DNA of 39,605 bases, from the IMG/VR virus record IMGVR_UViG_3300025121_000009; one strand, given 5' to 3'. The stretch comes from a virus. Below are positions 3,332 through 32,517 of this stretch, in pieces; the stretch's first letter is position 1, and the number at the start of each line of letters is the position of its first letter. The notes under the pieces are model-generated. The model was not told where the DNA came from and did no database searches. It saw nothing but the letters and a program-made list of their open reading frames with translations. A program made the translations under genes and the position numbers.

Positions 3332-3700
3332 TTAATCAATATCATCTTTAACAAATCCTGATATATCTATTGTAATCTCTGGTCTTCCCTCTTGATTAAC
3401 AATTATTGATAAACTACTAGAATAATACCCATTTTGAGAATTGTAACAAGGTACTGCATAAGTACCATTCAACACTATTCCTAATAACGGATTGCCTGTT
3501 ATTCTAATCTTCCTAAACTCCTCTTCCATTATTCCTGTATCCGATAACTGCTCCCAGTCTGCATACACATACTCACAGCAGTCTTGGTCATGGTAATCGG
3601 TTATTTTTGTACCATCACTAAACTCTAAACCCTCTTTGTCAAGCTTAATTAGCTTAACTGGTTTATCAAACTCAATTGTAAATATTCTCTTCTCTTCCAT
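3332..3700 (-). CDS. Hypothetical protein (122 aa) immediately downstream of rtcB
   Basis: Contains the motif HDQDCCEYVYADWEQL. It shares the same 16-nt upstream box as rtcB, at the same distance from the ATG. Function unknown. Confidence 0.55.
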   Translation of the reverse strand: MEEKRIFTIEFDKPVKLIKLDKEGLEFSDGTKITDYHDQDCCEYVYADWEQLSDTGIMEEEFRKIRITGNPLLGIVLNGTYAVPCYNSQNGYYSSSLSIIVNQEGRPEITIDISGFVKDDID

Positions 3701-3709
3701 TCTCTGTAA

Positions 3710-3725
3710 TGATTAAATTAAACTA
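3710..3725 (-). promoter_or_regulatory. Conserved box TAGTTTAATTTAATCA, 25 nt (box start to ATG) upstream of gene 3332..3700
   Basis: 16-nt exact match with 4914-4929. Confidence 0.4.
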
Positions 3726-4904
3726 ACCTTTAACAACAGCTAGCGGCTTTAACTCTACCAGTATCTTTGTTAAATCTTTCTGGTTTTCCATAACAACATC
3801 TATATCCTTATATGCTTGAGGAGCTTCTCCAAAGTCTAGATTACCTTTTCTATCCTTTCCCCACCTACCGTATACAACCCCCTCCATAGATTTGTCTGCC
3901 TCTTCTAGAGTTATGTTTCTACTTGCTTCCATTCTACCCATTTTCCTACCCGCTCCGTGTGAACAACTCATAAAGGATTGAACATTTCCCAGTCCCTCTG
4001 TTATATAGGACTTAGTACCCATAGACCCTGGAATAATTCCAACCTCTCCTAGCCTTGCACTTGTAGCACCTTTTCTATGAACCCATACATTCCTACCCAT
4101 GTGGTTTTCCAGTCTTGCGTAGTTGTGTGCTATGTTAATTATCTCTTCTGCTTTATAATCGCCAAGAGTATCAGCTACAACACCCATGACCCTCTCCATC
4201 ATCAGTTTCCTATTCGCAAATGCAAAGTCCACACAATACTGCATTTCCTGTATATAATCTTGACCCTCTTTAGTGTCGGTAGGTAGATATGCTAAGTCTT
4301 GTTCTACAACATTTGGTATATACCACTTCTTAGCTAATTCAATAGCTTTTGCATTGTAGTAATCACACACTTGCTTACCAAGATTTCTACTACCAGAATG
4401 TATCATTATCCACAATTCACCCTCGCTACTTCTTTGTAGTTCTATAAAGTGATTACCACCACCAAGCGTTCCTATTTGTGTAAGGGCGTTGTCATACTCC
4501 TGAGCTACAACGACACCATTAGCACTTTTGCTATTACTAAATGGCATTAGGCTCTCCTCTTGTTTCTTCTGGTGGTGTGCAAACCCAACTGGTACAACCT
4601 TTCTTATTCCACCCAATGTTTCTTTTAATTGTTCCTGCGTAATATCCTCTGTTTTTATATGAGTATTAACTACACACATACCACAACCTATATCTACGCC
4701 CACCATATTAGGGCTAATAACATCAGCAAGAGCTACAACCCCACCAATAGGCATTCCGTACCCTTGATGACTATCTGGCATTACTGCAACCCACTTGTAT
4801 ACAAAAGGTAGGTTAGCAATATTTTTAATCTGCTCCATAGCACCATCCTCGATATCTTCTAACCATAGTTTTACCTGTATCTTTTCAGTATTTATTTCTT
4901 TCAT
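3723..4904 (-). CDS. rtcB: RtcB-family 3'-phosphate/5'-hydroxyl RNA ligase
   Basis: 393 aa carrying RtcB hallmark blocks: DSHQGYGMPIGGV, GGGNHFIELQ, IHSGSRNLG, AHNY, HRKGAT, IIPGSMG and SCSHGAGR. Confidence 0.9.
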   Translation of the reverse strand: MKEINTEKIQVKLWLEDIEDGAMEQIKNIANLPFVYKWVAVMPDSHQGYGMPIGGVVALADVISPNMVGVDIGCGMCVVNTHIKTEDITQEQLKETLGGIRKVVPVGFAHHQKKQEESLMPFSNSKSANGVVVAQEYDNALTQIGTLGGGNHFIELQRSSEGELWIMIHSGSRNLGKQVCDYYNAKAIELAKKWYIPNVVEQDLAYLPTDTKEGQDYIQEMQYCVDFAFANRKLMMERVMGVVADTLGDYKAEEIINIAHNYARLENHMGRNVWVHRKGATSARLGEVGIIPGSMGTKSYITEGLGNVQSFMSCSHGAGRKMGRMEASRNITLEEADKSMEGVVYGRWGKDRKGNLDFGEAPQAYKDIDVVMENQKDLTKILVELKPLAVVKG

Positions 4905-4913
4905 CTTCTCTTT

Positions 4914-4929
4914 TGATTAAATTAAACTA
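4914..4929 (-). promoter_or_regulatory. Conserved box TAGTTTAATTTAATCA upstream of rtcB, preceded by AAGGAG
   Basis: Exact 16-nt repeat of 3710-3725. The GGAG ends exactly 25 nt before the ATG. Confidence 0.4.
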
Positions 4930-4946
4930 CTCCTTAATAACTCATG

Positions 4947-5211
4947 ACGGACATCCTCTTACTACTTTTTGGTGTGCTTCTTCCAAAAGGGTTTAATTAC
5001 TACCCACAAGAAGCGTAGTTACCATTTAGAGGTCTGTCCGTTTGAATTATCAAAGAGCTAATAACCTGTATGAGATACTCTGGGAACTTACTACTGAGTT
5101 GGCAGTGCCGTTCTTCACTGCTTCTTCTAGGATAGTTGTTTCCCTCGCTCTCCATTATGCTACTAAGATGATAGTAAGTCGCACTTCGCATTCTCACCAA
5201 AGTACCTCATA
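4947..5211 (-). ncRNA. Candidate structured ncRNA made of two adjacent domains, each closed by a long stem; class unknown
   Basis: Domain A (5069-5211): an 11-bp closing helix pairs TATGAGGTACT with AGTATCTCATA. Nested inside are a 9-bp helix (5172-5180 with 5085-5093) and the hairpin GCAGTG/CACTGC (5102-5121). Domain B (4947-5041): ACGGACA..CCTCT pairs with AGAGG..TGTCCGT. Nested inside are GCTTCTT/AAGAAGC and GGGT/ACCC. The region has no convincing CDS. Confidence 0.4.
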
Positions 5212-5310
5212 CAAATTATTAAAAGAACTGGTAGGTGCAACTGTTTTATTCTTAGTATTCAACAGAACCCAACAAATCTTTGTTGTAGCCTTTATTTAAC
5301 ACCCACCATA

Positions 5311-5382
5311 TTGCAGGGGTTAGAATTGAACTAACTACTCTTAGGCTATGAACCTAAAGTGCAACCGTTACACTTCCCTGCG
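5311..5382 (-). tRNA. tRNA with CAU anticodon (Met; initiator-like C1xA72 mismatch; Ile2 not excluded)
   Basis: A hand fold gives a full cloverleaf. Acceptor CGCAGGG/CCCTGCA with C1 opposite A72. D arm GTGT-AACGGTT-GCAC. Anticodon arm TTAGG-TTCATAG-CCTAA. Variable loop GAGTA. T arm GTTAG-TTCAATT-CTAAC. Discriminator A. No CCA is encoded. Confidence 0.8.
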
Positions 5383-5485
5383 ATGTTACCTGTGCCTTAG
5401 CTCCAGACTTAGCGTGGTGTCGTTTAAGAATTGCTATAATTAAATGTCCACATCCAGAACCAGGGTACAAGTAACACCCTAATTT

Positions 5486-6181: not shown

Positions 6182-6213
6182 ATTTGTAATATAATAAGTT
6201 ATATATTGTTTAT

Positions 6214-6241: not shown

Positions 6242-6262
6242 GTGTTTAACAAATCTTATAGT

Positions 6263-7083: not shown

Positions 7084-7100
7084 CCTCTTGGTAATAAAAA

Positions 7101-7292
7101 TTATCTAACTATCTTGTAAACACGATTTAACATTTCTATTAAATCAAATAGATCATCAGCTGTTAGTGATAACCTAACCCCACCAAAGTCTATTGTGAAA
7201 TGCTTAAACCCCCTATCAACTACAAGTGTGAGTTCATCTCCGCCATACCTATTTTGTAGTATGATGGTCTTACTTTGTACTTGTTCTTTCAT
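7101..7292 (-). CDS. Hypothetical protein (63 aa)
   Basis: ORF downstream of the promoter at 7326-7354. Confidence 0.5.
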   Translation of the reverse strand: MKEQVQSKTIILQNRYGGDELTLVVDRGFKHFTIDFGGVRLSLTADDLFDLIEMLNRVYKIVR

Positions 7293-7535: not shown

Positions 7536-7552
7536 GAAAATAAAAATAAAAA

Positions 7553-7801
7553 TTAAATAGTTTCTATTACACTCTTGGTAACTAGCTTGTCATCATCTCC
7601 CTGTAGCCACTTCCAGAAGTTTATGTAATTGGTAGACCTTCTTGTAAACCCATAATCACCATACTCTCTATCAAATAGCATTAGTTTTTCTTGTATTGCA
7701 TATTCAACCCTACTTCTAGGTGCAGTGCCTAGTGTCATAGAGTGTAAATGCTCAACCCCATTAACACTAACCTTTGTAACAAACAACTGTTTCTTTTTCA
7801 T
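7553..7801 (-). CDS. Hypothetical protein (82 aa)
   Basis: ATGA overlap with the upstream gene. Confidence 0.5.
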   Translation of the reverse strand: MKKKQLFVTKVSVNGVEHLHSMTLGTAPRSRVEYAIQEKLMLFDREYGDYGFTRRSTNYINFWKWLQGDDDKLVTKSVIETI

Positions 7802-8331: not shown

Positions 8332-8348
8332 TTTTGCTTGGTCTTAAA

Positions 8349-8444
8349 TTAAATAGCCAAATAAGAGAGTTGGCGACCAAGCGTGGAAACCAACCCCCTT
8401 ATTTGAATATCTAACTTTGAAACATTTTGCTTGGTCTTTTTCAT
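8349..8444 (-). CDS. Possible 31-codon leader ORF in the 5' region of gene 7798..8331
   Basis: Encodes MKKTKQNVSKLDIQIRGLVSTLGRQLSYLAI. It has no SD and spans two of the three GACCAAGC/GCTTGGTC segments. Confidence 0.2.
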   Translation of the reverse strand: MKKTKQNVSKLDIQIRGLVSTLGRQLSYLAI

Positions 8445-8945: not shown

Positions 8946-8995
8946 AACATTACTGAACTAAACTTAAAATTGAACTAAACTTGACCCGACTATTT

Positions 8996-11246: not shown

Positions 11247-11322
11247 TGCACCTTTTAAAAAAAATTAAACTAATCATCCCGAAAAACAACCCTAACGCAA
11301 TTATTAAATATATCCAATCCAT
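11239..11322 (-). CDS. Small TM peptide (27 aa, below the track cutoff)
   Basis: Encodes MDWIYLIIALGLFFGMISLIFFKRCNE. TAATG overlap with the peptidase stop. Confidence 0.35.
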   Translation of the reverse strand: MDWIYLIIALGLFFGMISLIFFKRCNE

Positions 11323-12664: not shown

Positions 12665-12682
12665 GTTCTCTATCGTGTTATA

Positions 12683-14575
12683 TTATTGTAGTCCTAGTGT
12701 TTGGAGTATGTCGGTGTTATTAGTGTCGGTTGTTTGTGTTGAGTTTGCCATTCCACCAAAGACCTGCCTTAGTAGTTGCAATTTATAAGCCCGTCTCTCT
12801 GGTGTGTCTGTTATCTTTGGAATATACCCACGATACATTTTCTCTTCCTCTTCGTTTATTACTGCACCAGTTCTCAATCTCGCTAGTGTGTCCATTATGT
12901 CAGTTGCTGCACTGTTATAGATTTGGGCCTGTGAGTTTCCACCCTGTAAAGGTAGCAGTTGTCCAAGTAAAACATTATTTCCACCCTGCTGTAATATACC
13001 TTCCAGGGTGTTAATAGAAGTTAGTGCAGACTCTGCTTTTCTTTGTAGGTCGCTCTTTTTACCACCACCACCCATTCCAAGCAAAGATAATACTGCATTA
13101 GCTTCGCTTGAGCTTATTTGTCCACTTAAAACTCCCTGTGCTAACATAATATTTATTGGATTTAATTCGTCTTGTACTTGCATTTCTGGTTGAACCCCCT
13201 GTTGTACCTGTTGTTCCCCACTTGTAGCACCAATTACACCTGGAATAGCCCTCTGTCCACCTTTAATAAGAGTGTCTAGTAATGAGGAGGTTCCCATACC
13301 TTGTGATACTGAGCCTTGTAAACCTCTTCCTATTGCTTCTGGTACTCTTTCTTGAAGTCCAAAGCTAGGTACTGCAACATTTGTAGAAGCTGTACCAACC
13401 TTGATTGATCCTGCACCTGGTGCTTTAGCTTGAAAGAATGGTCTTACTGTATAAATGTTTTTCATTTTAGCAAGTAAGTCTTTAGAACCTGGTACACTAT
13501 TTTTAAAGAAGTCGTCAATTACATCAAAAACCTGTGAGGTTGCTCTTTGGCTTACTGCAGCATTATTGGTGGAAGACCAGTTGATTAACTCCCTTGCCTT
13601 TTCTCTAACTGTGTTTAATGCACTTGGGCTATAATTATTTCCAAGCATTCTCAAGTCCCCAAGTAACTCTTGGTATTGTGCATTCTGTGCTATCTTAGGG
13701 TTGTTAATAAATCCTTTTTCAATGTTTGATATTATCTTATTTGTGTCTTTAACTGTAAATGTTTTTACACTGTCTGCACTACCAAGTAAGCCCTTAAACT
13801 CGTCTCCATACTTAGCTAGTGCTTTATCAGAGCTTGTTGAGGCTATTTCCGATGTGTGCGTTGGTAACCCTAAAGTATCCATATCGTCAAAGTAATCTCT
13901 TATTACCTGTTTACCCTGTGTTGAAGATGTTACACTTGTTTTGTTACTTGTTGCTAGTTTATTAGCGTCTAATCCTATTGCCTTACCTCTTGTTTCCAAA
14001 CCAAACTCGCTTGTTTTTGGTAGTTTAGCACCCTTAATAGCCCTTACACCCTCACCAACACCCTGTAATGCCCCACCAAGTAGTCCACCCAACGCTCCGC
14101 CTTTAAGTGTATCACTCAACTCTTCACCCTCATCACTATAAGCAAATCCACCTGCTGTTCCTGCTAACGCACCTTTTCCTGCTGCTTGTCCTATTCTACC
14201 TAGTGCAGTTATTGCAGCTGGTGCCTTTGACACACCACCAAGCCCATAAGAAGCTACACCAGCACCTGATTTTAAACCAAACTTCAATGGGTCTTTTTTA
14301 AGTGTTTCTGACTCTTCTTGTGATAATAGTGCATACTTATCAGGTCTTTTAACAGTATCTTTTCCCTGTGCCATTCTTATAATATCGGCTAAGGTAAGCC
14401 CAAACTCTTGTGCAACCCCAGCACCACCTCTAAAAGGTTGTGTTATTCCTGCTAAAAGCTTTTCAATACCAGATTTTTGTCTAGCTATTGTTTGTCCTGA
14501 TATATTGTCTGTATAAGAAGCATTTGGGTTTTGTGCTAACCATGCCCTTGCAGCCTCTCCTATTAGTCTTGCCAT
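12683..14575 (-). CDS. Large Gly/Ala-rich virion protein (candidate internal or ejection protein)
   Basis: 630 aa with low-complexity Gly runs. Assigned from its position in the tail/internal protein block. No motif. Confidence 0.4.
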   Translation of the reverse strand: MARLIGEAARAWLAQNPNASYTDNISGQTIARQKSGIEKLLAGITQPFRGGAGVAQEFGLTLADIIRMAQGKDTVKRPDKYALLSQEESETLKKDPLKFGLKSGAGVASYGLGGVSKAPAAITALGRIGQAAGKGALAGTAGGFAYSDEGEELSDTLKGGALGGLLGGALQGVGEGVRAIKGAKLPKTSEFGLETRGKAIGLDANKLATSNKTSVTSSTQGKQVIRDYFDDMDTLGLPTHTSEIASTSSDKALAKYGDEFKGLLGSADSVKTFTVKDTNKIISNIEKGFINNPKIAQNAQYQELLGDLRMLGNNYSPSALNTVREKARELINWSSTNNAAVSQRATSQVFDVIDDFFKNSVPGSKDLLAKMKNIYTVRPFFQAKAPGAGSIKVGTASTNVAVPSFGLQERVPEAIGRGLQGSVSQGMGTSSLLDTLIKGGQRAIPGVIGATSGEQQVQQGVQPEMQVQDELNPINIMLAQGVLSGQISSSEANAVLSLLGMGGGGKKSDLQRKAESALTSINTLEGILQQGGNNVLLGQLLPLQGGNSQAQIYNSAATDIMDTLARLRTGAVINEEEEKMYRGYIPKITDTPERRAYKLQLLRQVFGGMANSTQTTDTNNTDILQTLGLQ

Positions 14576-14576
14576 G

Positions 14577-15320
14577 TTATCTGTTAAACAACTTATCTAA
14601 GAAAGATTGGTTTTTTCTCTTCGGTACTTGTATATTACCAAGTAGGTTTCCAAGTAGGTTTACTCCAGTTCCAAGTATTGATGGTAACCCTAATGCGTCA
14701 GTTCCAAGCCATTTGCTAGTATCTGTTTTTCCACCAGCCGATTTTATAAGTTTATTTCCAAGAGAAGAGTCTGGAACAGTTATGTCTAAATTATCTTCAA
14801 CCACATCTTGTGTTTGTCCACCACCATATAATTGTGCAAGTAAATCTGCAATGCTTGACCCACCACTAGAAGCAGCTCTAGCTCTTGCAGCCTCTTGTTG
14901 AGCTACCGCGTCTTGATACAATCTCCACGCATTCTCTGCTGCACTGTTGGCTTGTTCTGCGTCTGTCTGGTATGCACCGAAAGCTTTTCCTAATATATCT
15001 TGGTATCTATTTCCCCTTGCAGTTAATAAATTAGCAGCTGTTCCATACTGTGTAATAGGTGCTTGTCTTGCCTGTGCTATTAAAGACATTTGTTTCGTTG
15101 GGTCTGAGATAAGCGTATTTGCGTACTTTTCTCTCAATGTAGGAGCTACACTTTGTAATTGCCCTAGTGCTTGGGACTGTTGGTTGATTAAATCTTGGTT
15201 GTAGTTAGTAGCCTCTCCATAAGACTTCTCAAACTCGCCCTTAAACCTATTAGGGTCAAAGGATTGAGCTTTCTTAAAAAGTTCCTCGTATTCTGCTAAC
15301 CTCTGTTCTGTTGTTGCCAT
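14577..15320 (-). CDS. Virion-associated protein (247 aa), function unknown
   Basis: ORF whose stop abuts the next start. Assigned by synteny only. Confidence 0.4.
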   Translation of the reverse strand: MATTEQRLAEYEELFKKAQSFDPNRFKGEFEKSYGEATNYNQDLINQQSQALGQLQSVAPTLREKYANTLISDPTKQMSLIAQARQAPITQYGTAANLLTARGNRYQDILGKAFGAYQTDAEQANSAAENAWRLYQDAVAQQEAARARAASSGGSSIADLLAQLYGGGQTQDVVEDNLDITVPDSSLGNKLIKSAGGKTDTSKWLGTDALGLPSILGTGVNLLGNLLGNIQVPKRKNQSFLDKLFNR

Positions 15321-15336: not shown

Positions 15337-15990
15337 CTAAACTCTTGTAGCCTTGTTAAGCCAATCAAGATAAGAAGACCCATAAGTACCAGCACTTGTA
15401 GTTGGTTTTGCCACTTTATATGGCGTATATGTCGTTTGTGTTGGTTTCTGTTTTCCTGAGCTTGACTCATAAAGGTCTTGTAGTCTGCTATAATCCTCTC
15501 TTGCCATTTGTTGCTGTTGCATTACATCAGCTTCAATACCTGCCTGTTGCTCACTTCCATACTTTCTGTATAAATCACCTAGGTTCTGTCCTCTTATTCC
15601 ACTTCTTGTTAATCCCCTATTAGCAAAGTTAGTCTCTAACTCTCCCTGTGCCTGTTGTACAATAGGTGCATAGTAATTAGCATACACTTGCTCTGCACTT
15701 CCCTGTGCTAGTTCTGGTGCAAAATATTGCTCCCATGGTAGTACACTAGCAAAGTTAATTGGTTGAGCAGCTCCTGCCTCTGTACCTAGTGTTGTTGCAT
15801 TTGAAACTGGTGCTACAGGTGTTACTGCTGGTGTTGATCCGTATGACAGCTGTTGCCCACTTCTGATTAAGTTAGGATTACTACCTATTAAGGCTTTGTT
15901 AGCATCATATAGAGTTCTCCAATTTGATATTCCAAGCCTATTGGCAATCGCACTAAGAGTGTCTCCTGGTTTTACGACATATATGGACAT
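15337..15990 (-). CDS. LysM-domain protein
   Basis: The N-terminus YVVKPGDTLSAIANRLGISNWRTLYDANKALIGSNPNLIRSGQQL is a typical LysM motif. Confidence 0.75.
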   Translation of the reverse strand: MSIYVVKPGDTLSAIANRLGISNWRTLYDANKALIGSNPNLIRSGQQLSYGSTPAVTPVAPVSNATTLGTEAGAAQPINFASVLPWEQYFAPELAQGSAEQVYANYYAPIVQQAQGELETNFANRGLTRSGIRGQNLGDLYRKYGSEQQAGIEADVMQQQQMAREDYSRLQDLYESSSGKQKPTQTTYTPYKVAKPTTSAGTYGSSYLDWLNKATRV

Positions 15991-16029
15991 TTGTTAATCG
16001 TACCAAATTAAGCACCCTCGTATAGTATA

Positions 16030-16038
16030 ATTATAACA
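16030..16038 (-). promoter_or_regulatory. Extended -10 promoter TGTTATAAT
   Basis: The minus strand reads TGTTATAATTATACTATACGAGGG. Confidence 0.5.
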
Positions 16039-16040
16039 TA

Positions 16041-17745: not shown

Positions 17746-19220
17746 TAATGTATTTCCCTTGCCTCGGTATCATAAATTAGGTTGAGTCCATAAATAGAAA
17801 GACCTGCCCCACTTGAGCTATGAGAAAGTTTTAATTCTATAAACTTACCAGCTGCTTTACTTGGCATTATAAGTCTTTGTACTTTAATCTCGTCTGTTCC
17901 TGATAGGTTCACATTACTTGTTGTTCCCTCCACATTACTCCAGTTACCCGTTCCACCTATTCTATACTGGGCTGTTAAAAACTCACTAGCACCAGTTGGC
18001 TTGTAAACAACCTGTACTTCGTAAGCATTCTTAACATCATCAACATTCTCTGCTGCTCCAAACAACTTTGGTGTTTGATAAACTGAACCCTGTGCAGATC
18101 CATTTAGTGCATACCCCAAATCTGTTTGCCATACCTGTTGTCCGTCTGGATTAGTTGTGTATACTTCATAAACACCACTTGCCTTGTTTCTTGTCCAATA
18201 CTTAAAAGGTCTGTTAATAAGCACATCCCATGAGTTAATTAGTATGTCATACCTTAAAACAACATCTGTATAAGCAGTCCCATTAAATGTAACATCTCCA
18301 ATATATAAGCAATACCTACCCCTTGAGTCTAACCCACCCGTAACATTATCTGCTGTTGTAACTACACTTAACCAGTCTTGAATTGGTCTACTAATAAGTG
18401 TTGCTTCTGTACCACCTGCATAGATATATACTCCACCTCGGTTATACCAAAGTAGTCTACTTTCACTTACCTGTATTGTTTCTTTGTTAGTTGTTCCACC
18501 ATTAGTATTTAAAACCCTTAGTGCATATTCATCCCATGCTGCTACCTTGTCTTGTGTAAACACAAAAAGAGACCCACTATACTCTTTAAGACCTATTATA
18601 GCCTCTCCCATATCGTCAAAATAGTTATTCTCTGGGAAGCTGTCTTTACTTACTTCACTAAATATAACCCTTGATGGGTATGTTTTTGTACTTGTTTTAA
18701 CATTTCCTAGGTATAATCTCCCCTTATAAACCTCTAAATGCTTGGCATAAACATTGGCTATACTTGATATACTAGCCCCTGTTGTAAACTTTATAGTACC
18801 CTCTAAACCCTGTGTTACATACATTCTTTCTACAAAGGTCTCTGCTGCTGTTCCTACACCAGTTCCAGTGTTGATAAAAGACACCCCAAACTCAACTGGG
18901 CTAGAGCCTGTTCCAAAACCACTCCCTATTGAAGCAAAACTTGAACCATTGTACTTATAAAGATTAGCCCCGTATACTTGATATAACTCATCAGTGCCAC
19001 TTTCCTTGTTCCATGCAAACACACCCCTATTACTACCACTACCTACACCAGTTCCTATCTGTGCAAAGCCCAAAGACTTGCCAAGTATTCCTGGTTTACT
19101 AATATCTACATTGTAAAGAAAAGGGGACTCATTTACCTTGAGTAGTAAAGGCGAGGTGAATGTCTGATACCCACCACTAAAGTCAATGTACTTCTGGATA
19201 ACTCGTTTACTTCTTGCCAT
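17745..19220 (-). CDS. Large tail structural protein (491 aa)
   Basis: Beta-rich sequence. Assigned from size and position. No specific motif. Confidence 0.4.
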   Translation of the reverse strand: MARSKRVIQKYIDFSGGYQTFTSPLLLKVNESPFLYNVDISKPGILGKSLGFAQIGTGVGSGSNRGVFAWNKESGTDELYQVYGANLYKYNGSSFASIGSGFGTGSSPVEFGVSFINTGTGVGTAAETFVERMYVTQGLEGTIKFTTGASISSIANVYAKHLEVYKGRLYLGNVKTSTKTYPSRVIFSEVSKDSFPENNYFDDMGEAIIGLKEYSGSLFVFTQDKVAAWDEYALRVLNTNGGTTNKETIQVSESRLLWYNRGGVYIYAGGTEATLISRPIQDWLSVVTTADNVTGGLDSRGRYCLYIGDVTFNGTAYTDVVLRYDILINSWDVLINRPFKYWTRNKASGVYEVYTTNPDGQQVWQTDLGYALNGSAQGSVYQTPKLFGAAENVDDVKNAYEVQVVYKPTGASEFLTAQYRIGGTGNWSNVEGTTSNVNLSGTDEIKVQRLIMPSKAAGKFIELKLSHSSSGAGLSIYGLNLIYDTEAREIH

Positions 19221-19257
19221 GTTTGTAATGTTAAACTAAAACCCTCGTGTATATATA

Positions 19258-19266
19258 ATTATACCA
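19258..19266 (-). promoter_or_regulatory. Extended -10 promoter TGGTATAAT
   Basis: The minus strand reads ATGGTATAATTATATATACACGAGGG and overlaps the stop region of the GT gene. Confidence 0.5.
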
Positions 19267-20482
19267 TTACAAGCGACCAACCCTTAGTGTTAGGCACTGT
19301 TGCCGACAGGTACACTTGATACAACTCTCTTATCCAGTCCTCAAGCTCCCACATCATGTTATCCATTAAGTATCTTTCTGCGTGTTTCCTAATCTTTTTA
19401 GGGTCTAGTGTGTCTACTAACTTAGCACATTGAACAAAATCATTAAGTGTATGGCACCTAAAACCTGTTACACCTTGTACTACTGTGTCTAAGAACGCAC
19501 CAAAGTCCGTTGTGAGTACAGGAGTACCACAAAGTTGGCTCTCTACATTAGTACCTCCAAAAGGCTCTAAATACCATGTTGGAATAAAACAAGCCTTAGC
19601 ATTAGCCATTAGCTCTGTTCTTTTATCTGGATCAACATACCCTACATACTCAACAAGTGGGTTACTTAAATCAATCTTCTCGTTATCGTCCATTTGTCCT
19701 GCAATTATTATCTTTGTATTAAGAGCTTTAGCTGTTTCTATGGCAGTTTGAACCCCTTTTCTATGAATAAGTCGCCCTATATAAAAGAAGTAATCCTGTT
19801 TTTTACTCTTAAAGGTAAAATCTTTTCCATCAAAGTAATTAGGAAATACTCGGTCATAATAAGCACCATTGGGTGTTTCTCCTGTTTGGGCGTTCTCTCG
19901 CCCATATGTGAAGTTCATTATATAGCTACTCTCAAAACCCCTGTAAACAGTTCTACCACTACTAAGCTGTGGTACACTTCCTCTATATCCAATACCAGGC
20001 TCCATTGTTAAAAATAGGTCTACTGCGTCAGCTATGGGCTTATCAAACCACCCTTGCATTATCATTAAAAAGTCGTCAGGTTGCTTGCGTTTGTTTATCT
20101 CTTTTATACTATTAGCTATAAACTTCTGGGTACACACAGTTGGTGCTTTATTTATATCGTGTCTAAACATACCCTCCCTCCAGTTATACCCTATGTCAAA
20201 CCTATTATCTCCGTCTCCCCATGCGTCTCTAATGTCCTGTAAGGAATGAGTTACAATGTACTCTGTACAAGGCACATCACCACCCTCTGCTCCGTATACA
20301 TAAACCTCATGACCTAAGTCCATAAGCATTTGAGCCATATGGTATTTTTTCATTGTGAAAGCACAGCCCATATACTTTCTTGACACTGGTAAATGACTTA
20401 AACCTACAATATGTACTCTAAACTTCTTTTGTCTTGGTATCATAGTGGTGTCCAAGAAAGACACCGATGAAAGCTTGTCCAT
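19259..20482 (-). CDS. GT-B fold glycosyltransferase (GT4/GT1-like)
   Basis: The C-terminal block EPFGGTNVESQLCGTPVLTTDFGAFLDTV matches the EX7E-type retaining GT signature. Confidence 0.7.
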   Translation of the reverse strand: MDKLSSVSFLDTTMIPRQKKFRVHIVGLSHLPVSRKYMGCAFTMKKYHMAQMLMDLGHEVYVYGAEGGDVPCTEYIVTHSLQDIRDAWGDGDNRFDIGYNWREGMFRHDINKAPTVCTQKFIANSIKEINKRKQPDDFLMIMQGWFDKPIADAVDLFLTMEPGIGYRGSVPQLSSGRTVYRGFESSYIMNFTYGRENAQTGETPNGAYYDRVFPNYFDGKDFTFKSKKQDYFFYIGRLIHRKGVQTAIETAKALNTKIIIAGQMDDNEKIDLSNPLVEYVGYVDPDKRTELMANAKACFIPTWYLEPFGGTNVESQLCGTPVLTTDFGAFLDTVVQGVTGFRCHTLNDFVQCAKLVDTLDPKKIRKHAERYLMDNMMWELEDWIRELYQVYLSATVPNTKGWSLVMV

Positions 20483-21038
20483 AAAGCCCTTGTGATGATA
20501 AATTAACTACTTGTCCACTTCCACCTAGCCACTTCTCAAGTTGTTCTTTAGTAAACGAGTGTGGGTGTCCATCATTTGTTCCTGTGTTGATCCATTCAAA
20601 TATTCTTACTTCTTTGGAAATTGCTAGTGCGTTTTTAATAATTCTTTTGGGATTTTGGGTGTGTTGGAGGCAATTATATATAAGTACAATGTCATATCTG
20701 GCGTTTGTTGGTATGTCTTCACCTTTAATTTTAAGGTACTTAATACCACTTGCTTTGTATCTCTCGCCCACCCATGCAGGATAATCACAAGGGTCTACAA
20801 CTGTTCCTTTAATATTTTCACATTTAAGAAGTATTGAAGAGGGTCCTCCCCCTATATCAAGCACACTTTCCCCATTCATGGGTATTCTGTACTGTGTATA
20901 CGCATTTGGAACTATTTTGAGTCCTAAGTACGGGGCTAGGCCTATTTGTTTAACATCCTCCCAGACAGTGTTAGCACAAGTGTTCCACCACTCTTTTTCC
21001 CATTGTTGTGCTTCTTGCCATTTAATCCTCGTGTTCAT
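20418..21038 (-). CDS. Class I SAM-dependent methyltransferase
   Basis: Motif I, VLDIGGGPSS, with a Rossmann-like alternation downstream. Confidence 0.65.
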   Translation of the reverse strand: MNTRIKWQEAQQWEKEWWNTCANTVWEDVKQIGLAPYLGLKIVPNAYTQYRIPMNGESVLDIGGGPSSILLKCENIKGTVVDPCDYPAWVGERYKASGIKYLKIKGEDIPTNARYDIVLIYNCLQHTQNPKRIIKNALAISKEVRIFEWINTGTNDGHPHSFTKEQLEKWLGGSGQVVNLSSQGLYGQAFIGVFLGHHYDTKTKEV

Positions 21039-21043
21039 AGTAT

Positions 21044-21052
21044 ATTATACCA
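21044..21052 (-). promoter_or_regulatory. Extended -10 promoter TGGTATAAT only 5 nt from the ATG (predicts a leaderless mRNA)
   Basis: The minus strand reads GTGGTATAATATACTATGAAC. Confidence 0.5.
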
Positions 21053-21060
21053 CTACAATC

Positions 21061-22837: not shown

Positions 22838-22866
22838 TATTCATTCAGTATTATATTAAACCAACA

Positions 22867-26306: not shown

Positions 26307-26573
26307 TTAAATGTCGTTTATTTTAGTCCAAATGTTTGCTATATCAGCAATATCAGTCCATATTTCCACATCCTCGCCATGGCTTATTACTATATAGTCA
26401 AGTCTTGCCTCTGTCATTATGTCGTCTCTATCACCCTCTGTACAAAGCCTTATAAGCCCTCCATAAGCCTTCCACTGTATTACATCATCTGCCACCTCAC
26501 TATAACTAGTGGTAGCATCTGTAATCTTAGTAAAGCTTGTAGGGATGTCTGCTATTTTTGTGTAAGTAGTCAT
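26307..26573 (-). CDS. Hypothetical virion protein (88 aa)
   Basis: ATGA-type overlap upstream. The stop lies 2 nt before the fibre ATG. Confidence 0.45.
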
Positions 26574-27232
26574 TATAACCCTCCATACTCATCTACAAGT
26601 GCGATTGTTCCACCACTATCTATGTTTCTTTCTACAATATTGTTCTCCATTTCGTCTAAACCACCTCTAAATTGAATCATAAAGTCGTCACCTTCTTGCT
26701 TCAATCCTAGTGTATATTTAGCCTTCCCTGCTGCGTATAAAGGCAGTAAACTATCGTAATCAAGTGGAAGTCCTGTAACATCACTATCCCCACTCATATC
26801 GGCAGGGTTTTCTACATAAAGCATGTACAAACCATCCGTTACAGCAACAAGAGGTGTTGGTCTAAGCTCAAACATATTCCCTATTATTGTGTACTTTGGG
26901 TTGCTTTGTGAAAATTGGTCTGTACTATCTCTTATTTCTGAAACATCTATTTGATTAACCTTAACCCTATCGGTTGCATTAACATACCCTATCTCTAGTC
27001 TTGCAAACTTTCTAAAATCTGTTGGAAGTGAATACAATGATTGGTTGGCGACTGTATCAGCCTTAGCAATCCTTAAAAAGTAATTCTGTCCTAATGTAAG
27101 GAGTCTATTAAGTACTAAGTCTCTTGCTGTGTTTAAGTCTCTTTTAACCTGAGTCGTTGTAACAGTGCTATTAGCACTTATTGTCATATTGAGTAAATCC
27201 CCAACCTCTGTTTGCATTACCGAGAATGTCAT
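26573..27232 (-). CDS. Candidate head-tail connector or adaptor protein
   Basis: 219 aa, placed between the capsid block and the fibre genes. Assigned by synteny only. Confidence 0.35.
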   Translation of the reverse strand: MTFSVMQTEVGDLLNMTISANSTVTTTQVKRDLNTARDLVLNRLLTLGQNYFLRIAKADTVANQSLYSLPTDFRKFARLEIGYVNATDRVKVNQIDVSEIRDSTDQFSQSNPKYTIIGNMFELRPTPLVAVTDGLYMLYVENPADMSGDSDVTGLPLDYDSLLPLYAAGKAKYTLGLKQEGDDFMIQFRGGLDEMENNIVERNIDSGGTIALVDEYGGL

Positions 27233-27270
27233 ATTATTACATTGTAAATTAATACATCCTCGTATACTTA

Positions 27271-27279
27271 ATTATACCA
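27271..27279 (-). promoter_or_regulatory. Extended -10 promoter TGGTATAAT
   Basis: The minus strand reads GTGGTATAATTAAGTATACGAGGAT. Confidence 0.5.
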
Positions 27280-27282
27280 CGA

Positions 27283-28461
27283 CTACAAAAGTTCCCCTTG
27301 AACATCTTTAGGTAAAATACTCTTATAAAGCTTGACTAAATGCCCCGCTTCAATATCAATATTCCTCTCTTTTTTAACCCACTCTTGCCCTGTTTTTACC
27401 TTTTCTTGCCAGTTTTTACCTGCCTTAATATCCTCTATCATAGCTCTCAACTTCACTTCAAACTCACCATTATCCTTAAAAGGATAGCTATTGTCCTCTG
27501 TAACGACCCTTGAGTAAGGCAACATATTCTTAACCACACAAGGAACACCCTGTGCTGTAAACTCTACCCACTTTATCTCACTCTTGTACTCGTTAAAAGG
27601 CTTACTTTCAAGTGGAATAATAGCACCATCAAGTCCCATGGTCTTAATCCTGTATGTATAGGCCCTAAATGGATACCAAGGATACCTTGTAACCCTATCT
27701 TCTATCTCTTTGAACTGATTTCTGTAATAACTTCCTAAAATATGTAGTGTAACCTCTGGATAATCCTTTAAAACCCTATTTAAAGGCTCTTTTATCTCTT
27801 CCCAGTCCCCCAAATGGCTCACACCACCCTGCCAACCTAGTCTAATCTCACCTTTTTTCTTATCTTTTGGTAAAAAAGTCCCCTCTGGGTACAAATCATA
27901 GTTAATAGCATTGTGAACAATACCAGTTTTAACCTCTTTACTACCAAACTGTGCATAGAAGTCTACAAGGTTCTCTACAGGTCCTGTAATGAGCTGAGAC
28001 GCTGCTAAAATATACAGTAGATTCATTTGTCCACTTAAATTAGTATACCTGTTAAACCCGTCTGTTAATCCTGTTACCCATACTGGTTTAAGATTGCCAT
28101 TAAATAAAGCCCAAGCGTCTTCTGTACCAAACTCTTTATAATGCTCACTCGTTGGCAATACCTCCATTGTATTATCATCATGGTCAAACACCATAGGCTT
28201 GTTAGGGTCTACCTCTTCTTTAATCAATTTGTAATACTGATAATCTCCTAGCCTACCAACAACAACATCAGCACTTTTTATCATTTCAATTTGCTTGTTA
28301 GCTTCCTCATGTCCGTCCATTAAGTAGCTTTTAACATCACTTCTCAACTGAAAGGCATCATCAAATTGCCTTATCCTATACCAACCACACCCACCGTCAT
28401 CAGCTGGTAAAAATAATACTTGTAAAGGTCTTTTCCCTTTCGTCTTGGATTTATGACTCAT
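27283..28461 (-). CDS. Putative glycosyltransferase embedded in the head module (392 aa from the SD-led ATG; the track start is 28509)
   Basis: The ATG at 28461 is preceded by TTAAGCGAGGATACT, the same RBS string as the methyltransferase at 36716. The N-terminus VLFLPADDGGCGWYRIRQ resembles GT-B N-terminal nucleotide-sugar folds. Weak call. Confidence 0.45.
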   Translation of the reverse strand: MSHKSKTKGKRPLQVLFLPADDGGCGWYRIRQFDDAFQLRSDVKSYLMDGHEEANKQIEMIKSADVVVGRLGDYQYYKLIKEEVDPNKPMVFDHDDNTMEVLPTSEHYKEFGTEDAWALFNGNLKPVWVTGLTDGFNRYTNLSGQMNLLYILAASQLITGPVENLVDFYAQFGSKEVKTGIVHNAINYDLYPEGTFLPKDKKKGEIRLGWQGGVSHLGDWEEIKEPLNRVLKDYPEVTLHILGSYYRNQFKEIEDRVTRYPWYPFRAYTYRIKTMGLDGAIIPLESKPFNEYKSEIKWVEFTAQGVPCVVKNMLPYSRVVTEDNSYPFKDNGEFEVKLRAMIEDIKAGKNWQEKVKTGQEWVKKERNIDIEAGHLVKLYKSILPKDVQGELL

Positions 28462-28478
28462 AGTATCCTCGCTTAAAA

Positions 28479-28880
28479 TTATATTGTTCTTGGGTCTACT
28501 GTTAAACACAGTTGCCCCAACTCATCTTCTACAAACGCCTCTTTAAACTTCTCAGGGTTAGTCAACACATCATCACCCCACATCTGCCTAGCCACATACA
28601 ACATTTCATTTGGTACTTTAGCAATAAGTCTCCAGTCTCTCTCGTTATTAAACCCATCAGTATTTTGTTTAAGCCTTGCGTTATCAGCAAACACTCCATT
28701 AAAACCACTCTTAACACCCTTATTCATCTTAGCTTTACGAGCAGCTTCAATTTTCTCTCCTATTGCTGTTGCTAGTATTCTTTCTTGTTCTTTGTTTTTG
28801 GGTGCCAAGTCTTGTAACATCTTCATTACTTCACTGGTACTCTTTTCTAGTTTATTACCCTCTGGGTCTATTAATTCCAT
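28479..28880 (-). CDS. Hypothetical protein (133 aa)
   Basis: ORF directly after the promoter at 28886-28894. No motif. Confidence 0.5.
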   Translation of the reverse strand: MELIDPEGNKLEKSTSEVMKMLQDLAPKNKEQERILATAIGEKIEAARKAKMNKGVKSGFNGVFADNARLKQNTDGFNNERDWRLIAKVPNEMLYVARQMWGDDVLTNPEKFKEAFVEDELGQLCLTVDPRTI

Positions 28881-28885
28881 ATCAT

Positions 28886-28894
28886 ATTATACCA
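28886..28894 (-). promoter_or_regulatory. Extended -10 promoter TGGTATAAT 5 nt from the ATG (predicts a leaderless mRNA)
   Basis: The minus strand reads ATGGTATAATATGATATGGAA. Confidence 0.5.
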
Positions 28895-28901
28895 TTACAA
28901 C

Positions 28902-28943: not shown

Positions 28944-29819
28944 TTAGCTTACTAATCCAGTCATCTTACCGTTCATAGCTTCTGCTCTTGCTTCAAGAGT
29001 TAGCTCTCCGATAAGGACACCATTCTTAGCGTCTGCTGTCTCTGGTGTATCTTTCTTGCTGACAGGTCTTAACTGTGCAACTGCCCACATATCTTTCTGC
29101 AATACTGCTAATTCTGTTGCAGCTATTTGGCTATCTCCCTCTACTGAGAGTCTTCCAAATGGTGATTGATATACTAATGTTTCGTTAGTATAAGTCGTGT
29201 TGCCATCGTTAAATGTTCTCTTTGCTGCCATTAAAGCCGCAATAGCGTTTACCTGTGTGTAAGAACCTAGTAACCAATCTGGTCTACCACCGTTCTCATA
29301 ACAACTTTGAATTAAGCTGTTAAGTTCTGCTGCTGCTAATGCTCTACCAGTACCAGTTCCAGTTGAAATATTGGTCGTAATGAATGCCATTATTCCCTTT
29401 AATCTTCTACCAGTTCCTGATGCTCCTGAGTTTGCAGTTCCGTTGATAAGAGCTTTCTCAATGTCTCTACCAATAGCTTCTAGTCCTACTTTTACTCTAA
29501 ATGCGTACTCGTCTTCCATTCCTGCTGGATCTACAGCCTGTTGAGTCTGTGATACCTGGAATGTCTTACTGAATATCTGAGTATAGTTAGATAGTCTGCT
29601 TGGTGCTGTCAATGCTCCGTATGAGAAACTTGCTCCCTCAACCTGTGCATTTACTGCTGCGGCATCCTGTGCGTATGTGCTCCACTCATGAATTGAGTTT
29701 CTTGCACTGACTTTTCTTAGCTTTGCGTAAGCTGGTGTAGTCATATCACCAATTTTTGTTAATACATCTGTCAAATCTTCATGATTTGTAGATGAATCGT
29801 ATGTCTGATAAACAGCCAT
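28944..29819 (-). CDS. Major capsid protein
   Basis: 291 aa, following the scaffold gene and followed by a strong terminator. The N-terminal pattern NHEDLTDVLTKI..TPAYAKL..ARNSIHEW resembles HK97-fold (SU10-type) capsid proteins. Confidence 0.6.
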   Translation of the reverse strand: MAVYQTYDSSTNHEDLTDVLTKIGDMTTPAYAKLRKVSARNSIHEWSTYAQDAAAVNAQVEGASFSYGALTAPSRLSNYTQIFSKTFQVSQTQQAVDPAGMEDEYAFRVKVGLEAIGRDIEKALINGTANSGASGTGRRLKGIMAFITTNISTGTGTGRALAAAELNSLIQSCYENGGRPDWLLGSYTQVNAIAALMAAKRTFNDGNTTYTNETLVYQSPFGRLSVEGDSQIAATELAVLQKDMWAVAQLRPVSKKDTPETADAKNGVLIGELTLEARAEAMNGKMTGLVS

Positions 29820-29918
29820 GTTAGTATCTAAAATAGTTTAAAGTCCTCGTGTCTCTTAATGGCTGCTGCGATAATTTACGCTTTTCCAATTCCTAACCTA
29901 TATGTTAAGGCTGTCTTT

Positions 29919-30656
29919 TTAAGACTTAGGCATTGGTGCATGCTTCTTAAGAAACTGTGTAAAATCTCCAGTTTTACTTGCAGCCTCTAGCTCTGAACTT
30001 CTAGTATCGTTTACTTGGTTCATGCCTCCTTGCTGCTTCTCTGAAAATGTTGAGCTTCTCTGTTGCTTTGCTTTTGTCTCGGCTATCTGGTCAAGGTATT
30101 TGAGTTTATAAGCTGTCTCAGGGTCAGATATATACTGTCCACTCTTAGCTAACTCATCCATGTACTCTGCCACTTCTGTAGCAACAAACTTAGGCATACC
30201 ATCCGAGCCATCGTGCTTACCCTCTAGTCTATTACATTCTGCAATAAACATGTTGGCAGCTTTCTGCTCTTGTGCCATTTTCTCCTGTTCCTCTTTAGTA
30301 ACAAATCCAAGCTTTTGTAGAGTTTGTTTTGCAACCTCTAATTGCTCTTCTTGGTACTGTTGCTCTGGAGTCATGGTTGAAAGTCTTTCACTTTCACTCT
30401 TTTGCCTCTCTATCTCTTCCATTTTCTTACGAAGTTCATTCCTTTCGGAAATTACTTCATCTAAACGAGCTTTCGGTATAAGTTGTCCGTTAGCGTCTCT
30501 ATCGGAACCTACCGTGCTATCCTGTTCTATTTCTTGAGTGGTTTGCGTCTTCTCTGACGATTCAACAGAAATATTCTCAGTGCTTGTTTCTACTGGTGCT
30601 GATGCAGTAACGGAAGCCTCCGTTGGTGTTGCAGCTATTGAGTTTGTGTCCTCCAT
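29919..30656 (-). CDS. Scaffolding protein candidate
   Basis: Acidic, Glu/Gln/Lys-rich helical sequence lying between the portal and capsid genes. Confidence 0.5.
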   Translation of the reverse strand: MEDTNSIAATPTEASVTASAPVETSTENISVESSEKTQTTQEIEQDSTVGSDRDANGQLIPKARLDEVISERNELRKKMEEIERQKSESERLSTMTPEQQYQEEQLEVAKQTLQKLGFVTKEEQEKMAQEQKAANMFIAECNRLEGKHDGSDGMPKFVATEVAEYMDELAKSGQYISDPETAYKLKYLDQIAETKAKQQRSSTFSEKQQGGMNQVNDTRSSELEAASKTGDFTQFLKKHAPMPKS

Positions 30657-30779
30657 TAAACTTGCCTACATTTTAACGACTTCTGTGTCGTACAGGCTAA
30701 AACAATTTAAATATAAAGAGCTAATATGCTCACTGTGTAATGGGCCGAGGATAGACCCACTACGCACTAAGTACATTAA

Positions 30780-30788
30780 ATTATAACA
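30780..30788 (-). promoter_or_regulatory. Extended -10 promoter TGTTATAAT with a leader of about 125 nt ahead of the scaffold gene
   Basis: The minus strand reads CATGTTATAATTTAATG. The leader contains the hairpin TGGGTC-TATCCTC-GGCCCA. Confidence 0.45.
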
Positions 30789-30803
30789 TGCTCGTAACAC
30801 TAC

Positions 30804-32486
30804 TTAGGGTACCTGTAATTGCATACCCTCTGGTAGTGGCATGTTAGGATCCATTTCTGTCGGCATTCCTCCCTGTGGCTCAGGTGGCATTTGTTCTTCT
30901 AGTAACCTCTCTGCTTCTTCTTCGCTGTCAATGTCTAATCCCTCAAGTAGGGTCTTTCTACTCACATCTCCACCTGCTCTTAGGGTCATTAGTATCTCTT
31001 TCTTACCCTCTTTGGTATGTGCTACCCCACTGGTTATTCTTACCTTAACCTCTGGGTTAGATGGTATTGCAACAACCTGCATAAGTCTTTTCATTTCCTT
31101 TGGTTCCATTCCACCACCTAATATTCCATAATACTCCCCTGTAGAGCTTCTGAATGGCTTTGTAAGTAACTGATACTTGTATCCCATTTCAAGTATGTCT
31201 TCTCCAAGCCTTGCTAAGGTGCTAGATAGGTTGTTTACCAAGTCGTACAACTGGTTAAAGTTAGCTGCAATTAAGCTTTCAATAGCTATTCCACTCTTAA
31301 CTCCTGTTGGTGTTTGTCCAATGAATGCTTCGTTTGCAGCACCTATTAACTGAATGTATGTTCCTAGTGCATTAATCTGCCTGTCTACATCACTTCCCAT
31401 TGGAGGTGTTGGTAGGAACTCTGGTTTAAATCCGTTCTTATAATATATCTTTTCACCATTTTGATTTGTAACACTCTTAACCCCTGCACCCTTTGGTATG
31501 AGAAGTCTTCCCTTGTTTATGAGGATGTTGTACTCAAGCCTACTTGTTTCAAGGTAATTAGAAGCTTTATTAAGAGGTACTATGTTTTTTACCCAACCCT
31601 CACCATAAATACCACCTATGTTAATATCAGGTTGATATATTTCAAATGGAAGTTTCTTAAACTCAGATAGCTCGTTTCTTAGTATCTCGTCATTACAAGT
31701 TGTTATTACTCGTATACCGTCTTTAGTAACACACCATGTCTCGTGAAGTATTAGGTTTTTGGTAGAATTACTCGTGTTATTTTCACTATTAAGTATGAGG
31801 TTTTTATAATCACTTTCACTCAGTGCCGAGGTGGTACTTAAATCTTCTATTATCTTCTTGTCGTAGTTAGGGTTGTCTTTAATAAGTTCGTAAGGCTTGC
31901 TCATAACCTTAACAACATACCTTGCGTCTTCCATACTTGTACAATATGGGTCAATGTAGGTATCAAACGGATCAAGTGCTTCTATCCAAGCATTCCCCTC
32001 TCCATCGTCTAACCTATCATCGTATCCGTACTGAAATACACCAAGTCCGTAAAGCAAACCATACAACAACCCCTTGTTCATTTTCTCTTCTATATTGAGC
32101 CTGTCGTATTGGAACGCTAAGTATTCACCTAATATTCTACTTGTATCTTTATCTAATTCCCCGTAAGGCAAAGCGTCTACATCCCAAGTAGGTCTTGTCT
32201 TCATTACAGCGTTTCTTACAGCTCTACACACCATATATGTATGGTTAATGTAAAAGGTAAGTGGGTTTCTAACATCTTTTACAAAACTACCTGTTGTTTT
32301 ATCAAACTTGAGGTTCTGGTTGCCCTTGTAGTACATGTAATTAACAAACCACTGCAACTCTACTTTCTCTCCTCTCCAGTTTCTACTTTCTTCAAACTTC
32401 TCTTTAGTATAGGATAGCCAATATGCTTTATCATACTCCTTTTTTTTCCCCTTTTCCTCGTAGTCTTGGGCTGTACTTGTTGCCAT
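30804..32486 (-). CDS. Portal protein
   Basis: 560 aa, lying after TerL with only the small TM gene at 32518..32775 between them, and with an acidic C-terminus. Assigned from synteny and size. Confidence 0.6.
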   Translation of the reverse strand: MATSTAQDYEEKGKKKEYDKAYWLSYTKEKFEESRNWRGEKVELQWFVNYMYYKGNQNLKFDKTTGSFVKDVRNPLTFYINHTYMVCRAVRNAVMKTRPTWDVDALPYGELDKDTSRILGEYLAFQYDRLNIEEKMNKGLLYGLLYGLGVFQYGYDDRLDDGEGNAWIEALDPFDTYIDPYCTSMEDARYVVKVMSKPYELIKDNPNYDKKIIEDLSTTSALSESDYKNLILNSENNTSNSTKNLILHETWCVTKDGIRVITTCNDEILRNELSEFKKLPFEIYQPDINIGGIYGEGWVKNIVPLNKASNYLETSRLEYNILINKGRLLIPKGAGVKSVTNQNGEKIYYKNGFKPEFLPTPPMGSDVDRQINALGTYIQLIGAANEAFIGQTPTGVKSGIAIESLIAANFNQLYDLVNNLSSTLARLGEDILEMGYKYQLLTKPFRSSTGEYYGILGGGMEPKEMKRLMQVVAIPSNPEVKVRITSGVAHTKEGKKEILMTLRAGGDVSRKTLLEGLDIDSEEEAERLLEEQMPPEPQGGMPTEMDPNMPLPEGMQLQVP

Positions 32487-32517
32487 TTGTATTTACTAAC
32501 TAGATTAAGTTCCTCGT

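Follow-up and report, generated by a model that had tools for sequence, protein, structure and literature searches.

How is a ribosome directed to the start codon of a phage gene whose Shine-Dalgarno (SD)-like sequence lies 25 nucleotides (nt) upstream of it? The question is raised by the IMG/VR virus record IMGVR_UViG_3300025121_000009, a phage-like contig of 39,605 nt (~39.6 kb, ~38% guanine plus cytosine (GC)), hereafter called the window, with all of its genes on the minus strand. A first-pass annotation had noticed GAGG or GGAG sequences (G-boxes) at a constant long distance from several of its start codons and had suggested a split or structured ribosome-binding site (RBS). We found that this distance is kept in related phages and that the G-box is accompanied by a second element, an A/U box (TAAWWT, positions -20 to -15) that ends 14-15 nt before the ATG. 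The A/U box, absent from the first-pass annotation, is the stronger, commoner and more sharply placed of the two signals. Together with the G-box, which in the most abundant structural genes stands 25 nt upstream without an intervening RNA hairpin, it appears to mark the start of protein synthesis in an unusual and so far undescribed way.

G-box and A/U box at fixed distances from the start codon

All spacings were read on the minus strand, for which the 60 nt upstream of each open reading frame (ORF) were printed and each CGAGG was listed. The portal leader (32484-32517) contains ACGAGG at 32512-32517, the A/U box TAATCT at 32502-32507 and the ATG at 32484-32486, and the same order is seen in the major capsid leader (29817-29850; ACGAGG 29845-29850, TAAACT 29835-29840, ATG 29817-29819). 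In the leader of the adaptor gene (27230-27280) the two boxes (ACGAGG 27258-27263, TTAATTT 27246-27252; ATG 27230-27232) are preceded by a TGGTATAAT promoter, and the order promoter, G-box, A/U box, ATG is retained in all adaptor orthologues. The LysM gene leader (15988-16040), which gave the top position weight matrix match of the window (17.6 bits), has a TGTTATAAT promoter, ACGAGG at 16016-16021, TTAATTT at 16005-16011 and the ATG at 15988-15990. In these four genes the last G of GAGG is located 25 nt before the ATG (32486, 29819, 27232 and 15990), as the first-pass annotation had counted. The same gap had been reported for rtcB (4902-4935) and is indeed found there, with GGAG at 4930-4933, TTAATTT at 4919-4925 inside a TAGTTTAATTTAAT block, and the ATG at 4902-4904. 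The DUF7448 gene starting at 3700 (3698-3731; ATG 3698-3700) carries the weak G-box AAGGT, present as described, in front of a TAGTTTAATTTAAT block identical to that of rtcB (box 3715-3721). For the 491-amino-acid (aa) tail gene (19218-19270; ATG 19220) the shorter gap of 22 nt was confirmed; here a TGGTATAAT promoter is followed by ACGAGG at 19243-19248 and a degenerate box, TTTAGTTTAA.

Throughout the window ACGAGG occurs in 19 copies on the sense strand and 0 on the antisense strand, and four copies stand at one shared distance from a start. GRGG or GGAG exactly 25 nt upstream was found for 6/57 starts versus 11/751 non-start ATGs on the sense strand (binomial p ~2e-4). Chance or composition as the cause was ruled out by the strand bias, the spacing statistics and the counts at start and non-start ATGs. 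When GAGG-to-ATG distances were plotted without calling genes, coding periodicity made the histogram uninformative.

A canonical SD, defined by an anti-SD-complementary core 5-9 nt upstream, was found in none of the portal, capsid, adaptor, LysM and tail genes, with a family-level frequency of 0 in each; other genes of the same phages do have one, including those at 1425 and 28461, for which canonical SDs had been correctly assigned. The claim that the distal-G-box genes have no normally spaced SD holds insofar as none is properly spaced, but rtcB (AGAGAAG) and gene 3700 (AGAGA) have a purine run that touches the ATG. Nor do the distal-G-box genes have a -10 hexamer whose end is 5-8 nt from the ATG, the feature by which leaderless genes were recognized. 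Hidden upstream starts, already dismissed in the first-pass annotation for the capsid and portal genes, were ruled out by in-frame stop codons within the spacers and by the alignment of the N-termini with those of homologues.

Genes were then called on the window and 47 related loci, giving 434 distinct leaders; these are not phylogenetically independent, and counts at the level of gene families were made alongside. The first-pass annotation had named conservation in related phages as a check on its proposal, and the spacing was kept: in orthologues with 55-99% protein identity the gap between GRGG and ATG is 22-26 nt, most often 24-25 nt. For the portal gene this was the case in 23-28 distinct orthologous leaders, and in portal, capsid, adaptor and tail orthologues the G-box stays at 22-26 nt even where the remaining spacer has diverged. 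Over all 434 leaders the GRGG-to-ATG spacing was bimodal, with 52 leaders at 5-9 nt, 75 at 23-26 nt and almost none at 11-21 nt. A canonical SD was present in 2/93 leaders with a distal G-box versus 80/341 of the others (Fisher p 1.5e-7), a difference that holds per gene family too. The sequence of the G-box is clade-specific, ACGAGGA in the clade of the window and AGGGGTT in a distant clade, and it is identical at the distal and canonical spacings. Since a leader thus has its G-box at one or the other spacing and almost never at both, the distal G-box behaves like an SD put in a different place, a putative SD equivalent. Tandem copies of the G-box are common in the adaptor and capsid leaders of several relatives (L006, L007, L010, L036, L037, L039 and L041), in the form ACGAGG-N4-ACGAGG or GGGGTT-N0-8-GGGGTT.

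ATG-anchored logos and a refined weight matrix revealed a near-invariant T, A and T a few bases 3' of the G-box. When the leaders were scanned for TANNNT without a sequence prior, a peak appeared 14-15 nt before the ATG, comprising 173/434 leaders, and base 3 was A in 94% of these. With A required at position 3, 163/434 leaders had the hexamer at 14-15 nt and at most 20 at any other spacing; TAAATT was enriched 30-fold at this position. About 40% of the start codons in the phage family are thus preceded by an A/U box in this register. In the window, TAA..T was found 14-15 nt before 22/57 starts versus 7/751 other ATGs (p ~5e-30). The genes concerned are mutually non-homologous and have early and late functions alike, and shared ancestry of one leader does not explain the box since at least 10 gene families carry it in at least 80% of their members. 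The distal G-box is associated with the A/U box (odds ratio 5, p 4e-9). Between the A/U box and the ATG the sequence is A-rich: 86% of leaders have A at -6, and the logo is A-rich at positions -3 to -1; apart from this A-richness, the logo showed no conserved purine element in this stretch.

The two boxes occur in two arrangements. The distal order is G-box, ~4 nt (N3-5), A/U box, 14-15 nt, ATG, and is that of the portal, capsid, adaptor, LysM and rtcB genes. The inverse order, A/U box, 0-5 nt, G-box, 5-8 nt, ATG, was found for the genes at 28461, 36716 and 1425 and their relatives. The register of the A/U box is unchanged whether the G-box is located upstream or downstream of it. The leader of the gene at 28461 (28459-28481) has the box TAATTT at 28476-28481 followed by CGAGGA (GAGG 28467-28470), and of the 18 leaders of its gene family 89% have the box and 94% a canonical SD. 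In the methyltransferase gene at 36716 (36714-36750) a TGGTATAAT promoter precedes the box TAAATT (36731-36736) and CGAGGA (GAGG 36723-36726), and in the gene at 1425 (1423-1446) the box TTAATT at 1441-1446 is followed by AAAGGAG (GGAG 1434-1437).

A/U boxes without a distal G-box are located 14-15 nt before further minus-strand starts of the window, at 38139-38145, 37086-37091, 26320-26325, 22853-22858, 14590-14595, 12680-12685, 11262-11268, 8961-8966, 8346-8352, 7550-7556, 7098-7103 and 6196-6201.

A candidate initiation leader and its alternatives

The interpretation that we favour, at a level of confidence that is no better than even, is that these sequences may constitute a modular translation-initiation leader acting at the level of the mRNA and specific to a family of uncultured phages of the SU10 capsid type. 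Its fixed part would be a single-stranded UAAWWU with its 3' end 14-15 nt before the AUG, and a G-rich box complementary to the anti-SD would stand in one of two places, 5-9 nt from the AUG or ~4 nt upstream of the A/U box. The 30S subunit would dock through pairing of the G-box with the anti-SD, as an SD or as a standby SD, while the A/U box would be held by a ribosome-associated sequence reader, either S1-like, as proposed for the T7 epsilon element, or a host or phage factor. The ~18 extra nt would then loop out without a hairpin and the A-rich unstructured stretch would present the AUG. Such a ribosome-linked ruler is proposed because it best explains the one-nucleotide register; docking of the ribosome, the identity of the box reader and an effect on expression are what we infer from the leaders.

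Several points weigh against this interpretation. To our knowledge, S1 does not read a sequence in a fixed register with near-invariant T1, A2, A3 and T6, for which reason a reader other than S1 may be involved. Pairing of the A/U box with the 16S rRNA 3' tail, or with the region 5' of the anti-SD, was considered as well and gave no fit to textbook 16S sequences. We also know of no SD that positions a bacterial 30S subunit from 25 nt upstream across an unstructured spacer. The A/U box is not anticorrelated with canonical SDs or leaderless promoters and is therefore not simply an SD substitute, and the box-like hexamer of leaderless genes would fall in untranscribed DNA. Finally, the box fits the minimal -10 signature TANNNT.

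A bolder form of the proposal, which we put forward only tentatively, is that UAAWWU could be an undescribed, register-fixed ribosome-recognition element, read by the initiating ribosome of the host or by an initiation factor supplied by the phage. It would let an SD dock 25 nt upstream across a looped-out, unstructured spacer and would amount to a second geometry of start selection, preferred for the most highly expressed phage genes.

Among the alternatives, the one that survives best is a promoter at the DNA level, although we regard it as rather doubtful. In this case TAAWWT would be a -10-like element for a phage sigma factor or an alternative host sigma factor, the G-box an upstream contact, and the mRNAs would have SD-less leaders of 7-9 nt. 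Besides the match to TANNNT, a purine is often found ~7-9 nt downstream of the box, the family demonstrably has promoter-to-ATG fusions at its leaderless genes, and the clade-specific variants of the G-box could mirror co-evolution with a phage protein. Many of the small ORFs, moreover, are unannotated. Single-element promoters occur in phages of the phiEco32 type (tAATGTAtA). Against a promoter, four observations place the A/U box and the G-box inside the predicted transcripts, in their 5' untranslated regions. Wherever a TGnTATAAT promoter precedes the G-box, 9 nt or more separate it from the hexamer, and the gap between -10 and G-box varies from 9 to 33 nt while that between G-box and ATG is fixed. 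In early-gene leaders the A/U box is downstream of complete -35/-10 promoters, at a distance of 10-35 nt from them; the box precedes early and late genes alike. Transcription starting 7 nt 3' of the box would delete the conserved SD of the genes in which the box precedes an SD.

The fourth observation comes from the scaffold gene leader (30654-30700, minus strand), where two covarying helices were found and the invariant GTTAAAATGT (box 30670-30675) is unpaired, 13 nt before the ATG at 30656. In this fold 90.8% of cells were paired versus 23-49% in slid controls, 0/500 shuffles were as good, and 5/8 pairs had changed on both sides (compensatory changes), with the helix variants GCCT/AGGC, ACCC/GGGT, GTCC/GGAC and ACTC/GAGT, and CGAC/GTCG versus CGTC/GACG. 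The fold, supported by covariation, has its 5' arm upstream of the unpaired box, so that the helix spans the box and places it at the RNA level. The 3' arm is SD-like and located 9-13 nt before the ATG, and the fold may mask it.

Other properties of the box bear on a promoter as well. Its distance of 14-15 nt to the ATG is sharper than the promoter-to-ATG distance of true leaderless genes (5-8 nt), and a promoter needs no such register. The comparison with a sigma-70 -10 element is mixed: TANNNT is present, but without a TG extension and without a -35 element, and 94% of boxes have A as their third base where the TG-extended TATAAT promoters of the family have T. Neither a sigma factor nor an RNA polymerase was detected by Pfam or PHROGs in the ~50 ORFs, and neither was bS21; remote homologues could escape these searches. 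Archaeal BRE/TATA (B recognition element/TATA box) promoters and Bacteroidetes TAnnTTTG promoters were rejected on account of misfitting distances, and the family has TGnTATAAT promoters, hairpin-plus-T-run terminators and LysM/M23 and DnaD-like genes.

Less probable than a promoter is an operator for an RNA-binding protein of phage or host. G-box and A/U box would then form a start-associated site at which a translational activator or repressor binds, much like the RegA sites of T4 or the start-associated sequences (SAS) of Cluster K phages. The conservation of primary sequence without structure would suit such a site, and the clade-specific flanks of the G-box (AC of ACGAGGA, TT of GGGGTT) exceed the needs of anti-SD pairing. 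SAS provide a precedent that is start-associated and phage-restricted and whose reader is unknown (PMC3203893). The motif is moreover almost absent from the one candidate bacterial genome scanned, a Bacteriovoracaceae metagenome-assembled genome (MAG), where it was found only on a 4.3-kb phage contig and in one chance match. However, this genome is almost certainly not that of the host because its large contigs have 56% GC versus 38% for the window. No RNA-binding protein was identified, and a regulator alone would explain neither the one-nucleotide register to the AUG nor the exclusivity of distal and canonical G-boxes.

A site for RNA processing or 5' stabilization is less probable again, and we consider it improbable. 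The A/U box would be a site of the RNase E/Y type that matures a polycistronic late mRNA, or the 5'-proximal G-box a ribosome pad similar to STAB-SD. In promoter-proximal genes the G-box is indeed 2-25 nt from the predicted 5' end, A/U-rich single-stranded boxes are typical of endonuclease sites, and the AU box of cyanobacterial psbA is an RNase E site adjoining the RBS (PMC6596454). Yet a register fixed to the AUG and exclusivity with canonical SDs are not required for either role, and the portal and capsid G-boxes are internal to operons.

Finally, the hairpin-bridged split RBS of the T4 gene 38/25 type, which the first-pass annotation had suggested, is very improbable: the SD-like box 22-26 nt from the AUG does recall T4 genes 38 (22 nt) and 25 (27 nt), and a few individual leaders can form A-U hairpins of 4-6 bp, but the conserved part is a primary-sequence motif and not a stem, RNAalifold found 0 consensus pairs in the portal and capsid leader alignments, and 72 distinct 25-nt spacers averaged -0.72 kcal/mol in minimum free energy and +0.23 in z versus dinucleotide shuffles, hence were slightly less stable than these. 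Over half of the 72 spacers were without any predicted pair and z was below -1 in only 5.6%. A standby site, which had been named as another possibility, is compatible with these results.

Comparison with known start signals

T4 genes 38 and 25 have SD-to-AUG gaps of 22 and 27 nt, respectively (Nivinskas et al. 1999; Malys and Nivinskas 2009; PMC3014915), and a stable hairpin between SD and AUG is described as required for their split initiation (PMC3014915). The two systems share an SD-like sequence 22-27 nt upstream, its presence in phage structural genes and its conservation among close relatives. The T4 hairpin is described as cutting the spacing to 5-11 nt in two genes, whereas here many genes have an unstructured spacer with a conserved box.

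As a translation signal, the proposed leader comes nearest to the T7 epsilon enhancer and to the RBS2/AU-box arrangement of plastid psbA. The epsilon or Enh element of T7 gene 10, UUAACUUUA, is an A/U-rich translational enhancer upstream of the SD that is thought to act via S1 (Olins and Rangwala 1989; PMC8748333), and A/U-rich elements 10-20 nt upstream have been ascribed to bS1 (PMC7043885). Like epsilon, the A/U box is a short A/U-rich element ~15-25 nt before a phage capsid AUG and 5' of the SD, in the order seen at 28461, 36716 and 1425 and in their relatives, and TTAATTTAA is one base off epsilon. Unlike it, the A/U box has a register fixed within 1 nt, whereas Enh reportedly works when moved relative to the SD, and the main class of leaders has an SD-like box upstream of the A/U box and no SD between the box and the AUG.

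In the tobacco psbA 5' untranslated region, RBS2 at -22, the AU box UAAAUAAA and RBS1 at -9 follow each other, with the AU box looped out, and Chlamydomonas psbD has the elements PRB2, polyU and PRB1 (Hirose and Sugiura 1996 for psbA; both as summarized in PMC3555230). These plastid leaders have in common with the window a distal 16S-complementary element over 20 nt from the start and, 3' of it, an A/U box; the latter has been proposed to bind a trans-acting factor while looped out. The window leaders differ from psbA as described there in lacking a conserved proximal RBS1-like purine element near -9, and in belonging to dozens of genes of a phage whose host is not known to be cyanobacterial.

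The phenomenon is most closely paralleled by the SAS/ESAS of Cluster K mycobacteriophages (Pope et al. 2011, PMC3203893), a family-specific motif in one orientation that occurs at a fixed position ahead of the start codons of many unrelated genes. ATG is preferred there, too, and the motif, whose reader is unknown, contains an SD core (PMC3203893). However, SAS are GC-rich sequences of 13 bp, located 3-7 bp from the start and restricted to non-structural genes (PMC3203893), in contrast to the A/U hexamer at 14-15 nt and the movable G-box found here in structural and early genes. The unstructured A-rich stretch before the AUG is shared by SD-independent, A-rich "Kozak-like" initiation (Baez et al. 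2019, cited in PMC7043885), but the signals there are compositional, with no fixed hexamer at -20 to -15 and no distal SD.

If the proposed leader is real, bacterial or phage-reprogrammed ribosomes would use an SD-type contact 25 nt from the start without a hairpin, the only well-studied distal SDs, those of T4 genes 25 and 38, being both hairpin-dependent. A fixed A/U hexamer would determine which start is selected, in a compact and portable initiation cassette. The signature could serve to predict starts and expression classes in metagenomic phages, and modes of initiation could be compared within a single natural 39-kb genome, in which leaderless, canonical and distal leaders are found side by side.

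The phage family, leaderless genes and start-codon calls

The window encodes SU10-type capsid, portal and adaptor proteins, a large terminase, RtcB, a LysM protein, an M23-type lysin, Erf, a DnaD-like loader and sugar-modification genes; Pfam matched SU10_MCP for the major capsid and RtcB for the rtcB gene. A single tRNA-Met with a CAU anticodon is located at 5310-5383, and many small ORFs are without annotation. A search of cultured phages with the window gave zero matches. A portal protein search retrieved 46 related IMG/VR contigs with 60-99% identity, the capsid protein had 445 database clusters, every one metagenomic, and in a protein atlas and a large protein search all relatives were uncultured viral sequences. 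The sole high-identity genome match, with 82% capsid identity, was the 4.3-kb contig of the Bacteriovoracaceae MAG (L047 / G002 contig C39, 41% GC), which is probably a binning error and not a host link. Distant capsid homologues in prophages and other bacterial genomes carry ordinary SDs, which makes the distal arrangement clade-specific.

In the leaderless genes at 28880, 32775 and 21038 a TG(G/T)TATAAT hexamer ends 5-7 nt before the ATG (window 28881-28900, 32776-32800 and 21039-21055). This arrangement is kept in nearly all relatives for 28880, whose hexamer is directly 3' of a GC-hairpin/T-run terminator, and for 32775. Across the 434 leaders, leaderless genes stand out as a second peak, of TATAAT with T at position 3, at a spacing of 5-8 nt. 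The methyltransferase gene at 36716 is leaderless in relatives L001, L008, L014 and L024, and has an inserted cassette of ~18 nt with box and SD in the window, L027 and L037; initiation modes have therefore been exchanged between close relatives. The leaderless methyltransferase gene at 21038 (21015-21038) contains ACGAGG within codons 3-4, followed 5 nt on by an out-of-frame ATG that opens an ORF of 16 codons (MARSTT...), and in relative L022 ACGAGGA serves as the canonical SD of this gene.

Some longest-ORF starts in the window are probably wrong, namely 1470 (GTG), 28509 (GTG), 32781, 34131 (TTG), 36719 (GTG) and 37113 (TTG); homologue alignments and leader signals favour the ATGs at 1425, 28461, 32775, 34128, 36716 and 37071, respectively. 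The proposed leader would also explain N-terminally extended capsid calls in this abundant uncultured family: the database copies P0027, P0070, P0096 and P0102 have 305-306 aa versus the usual 291-292 aa, which is probably an over-extension by gene callers that found no SD near the true ATG.

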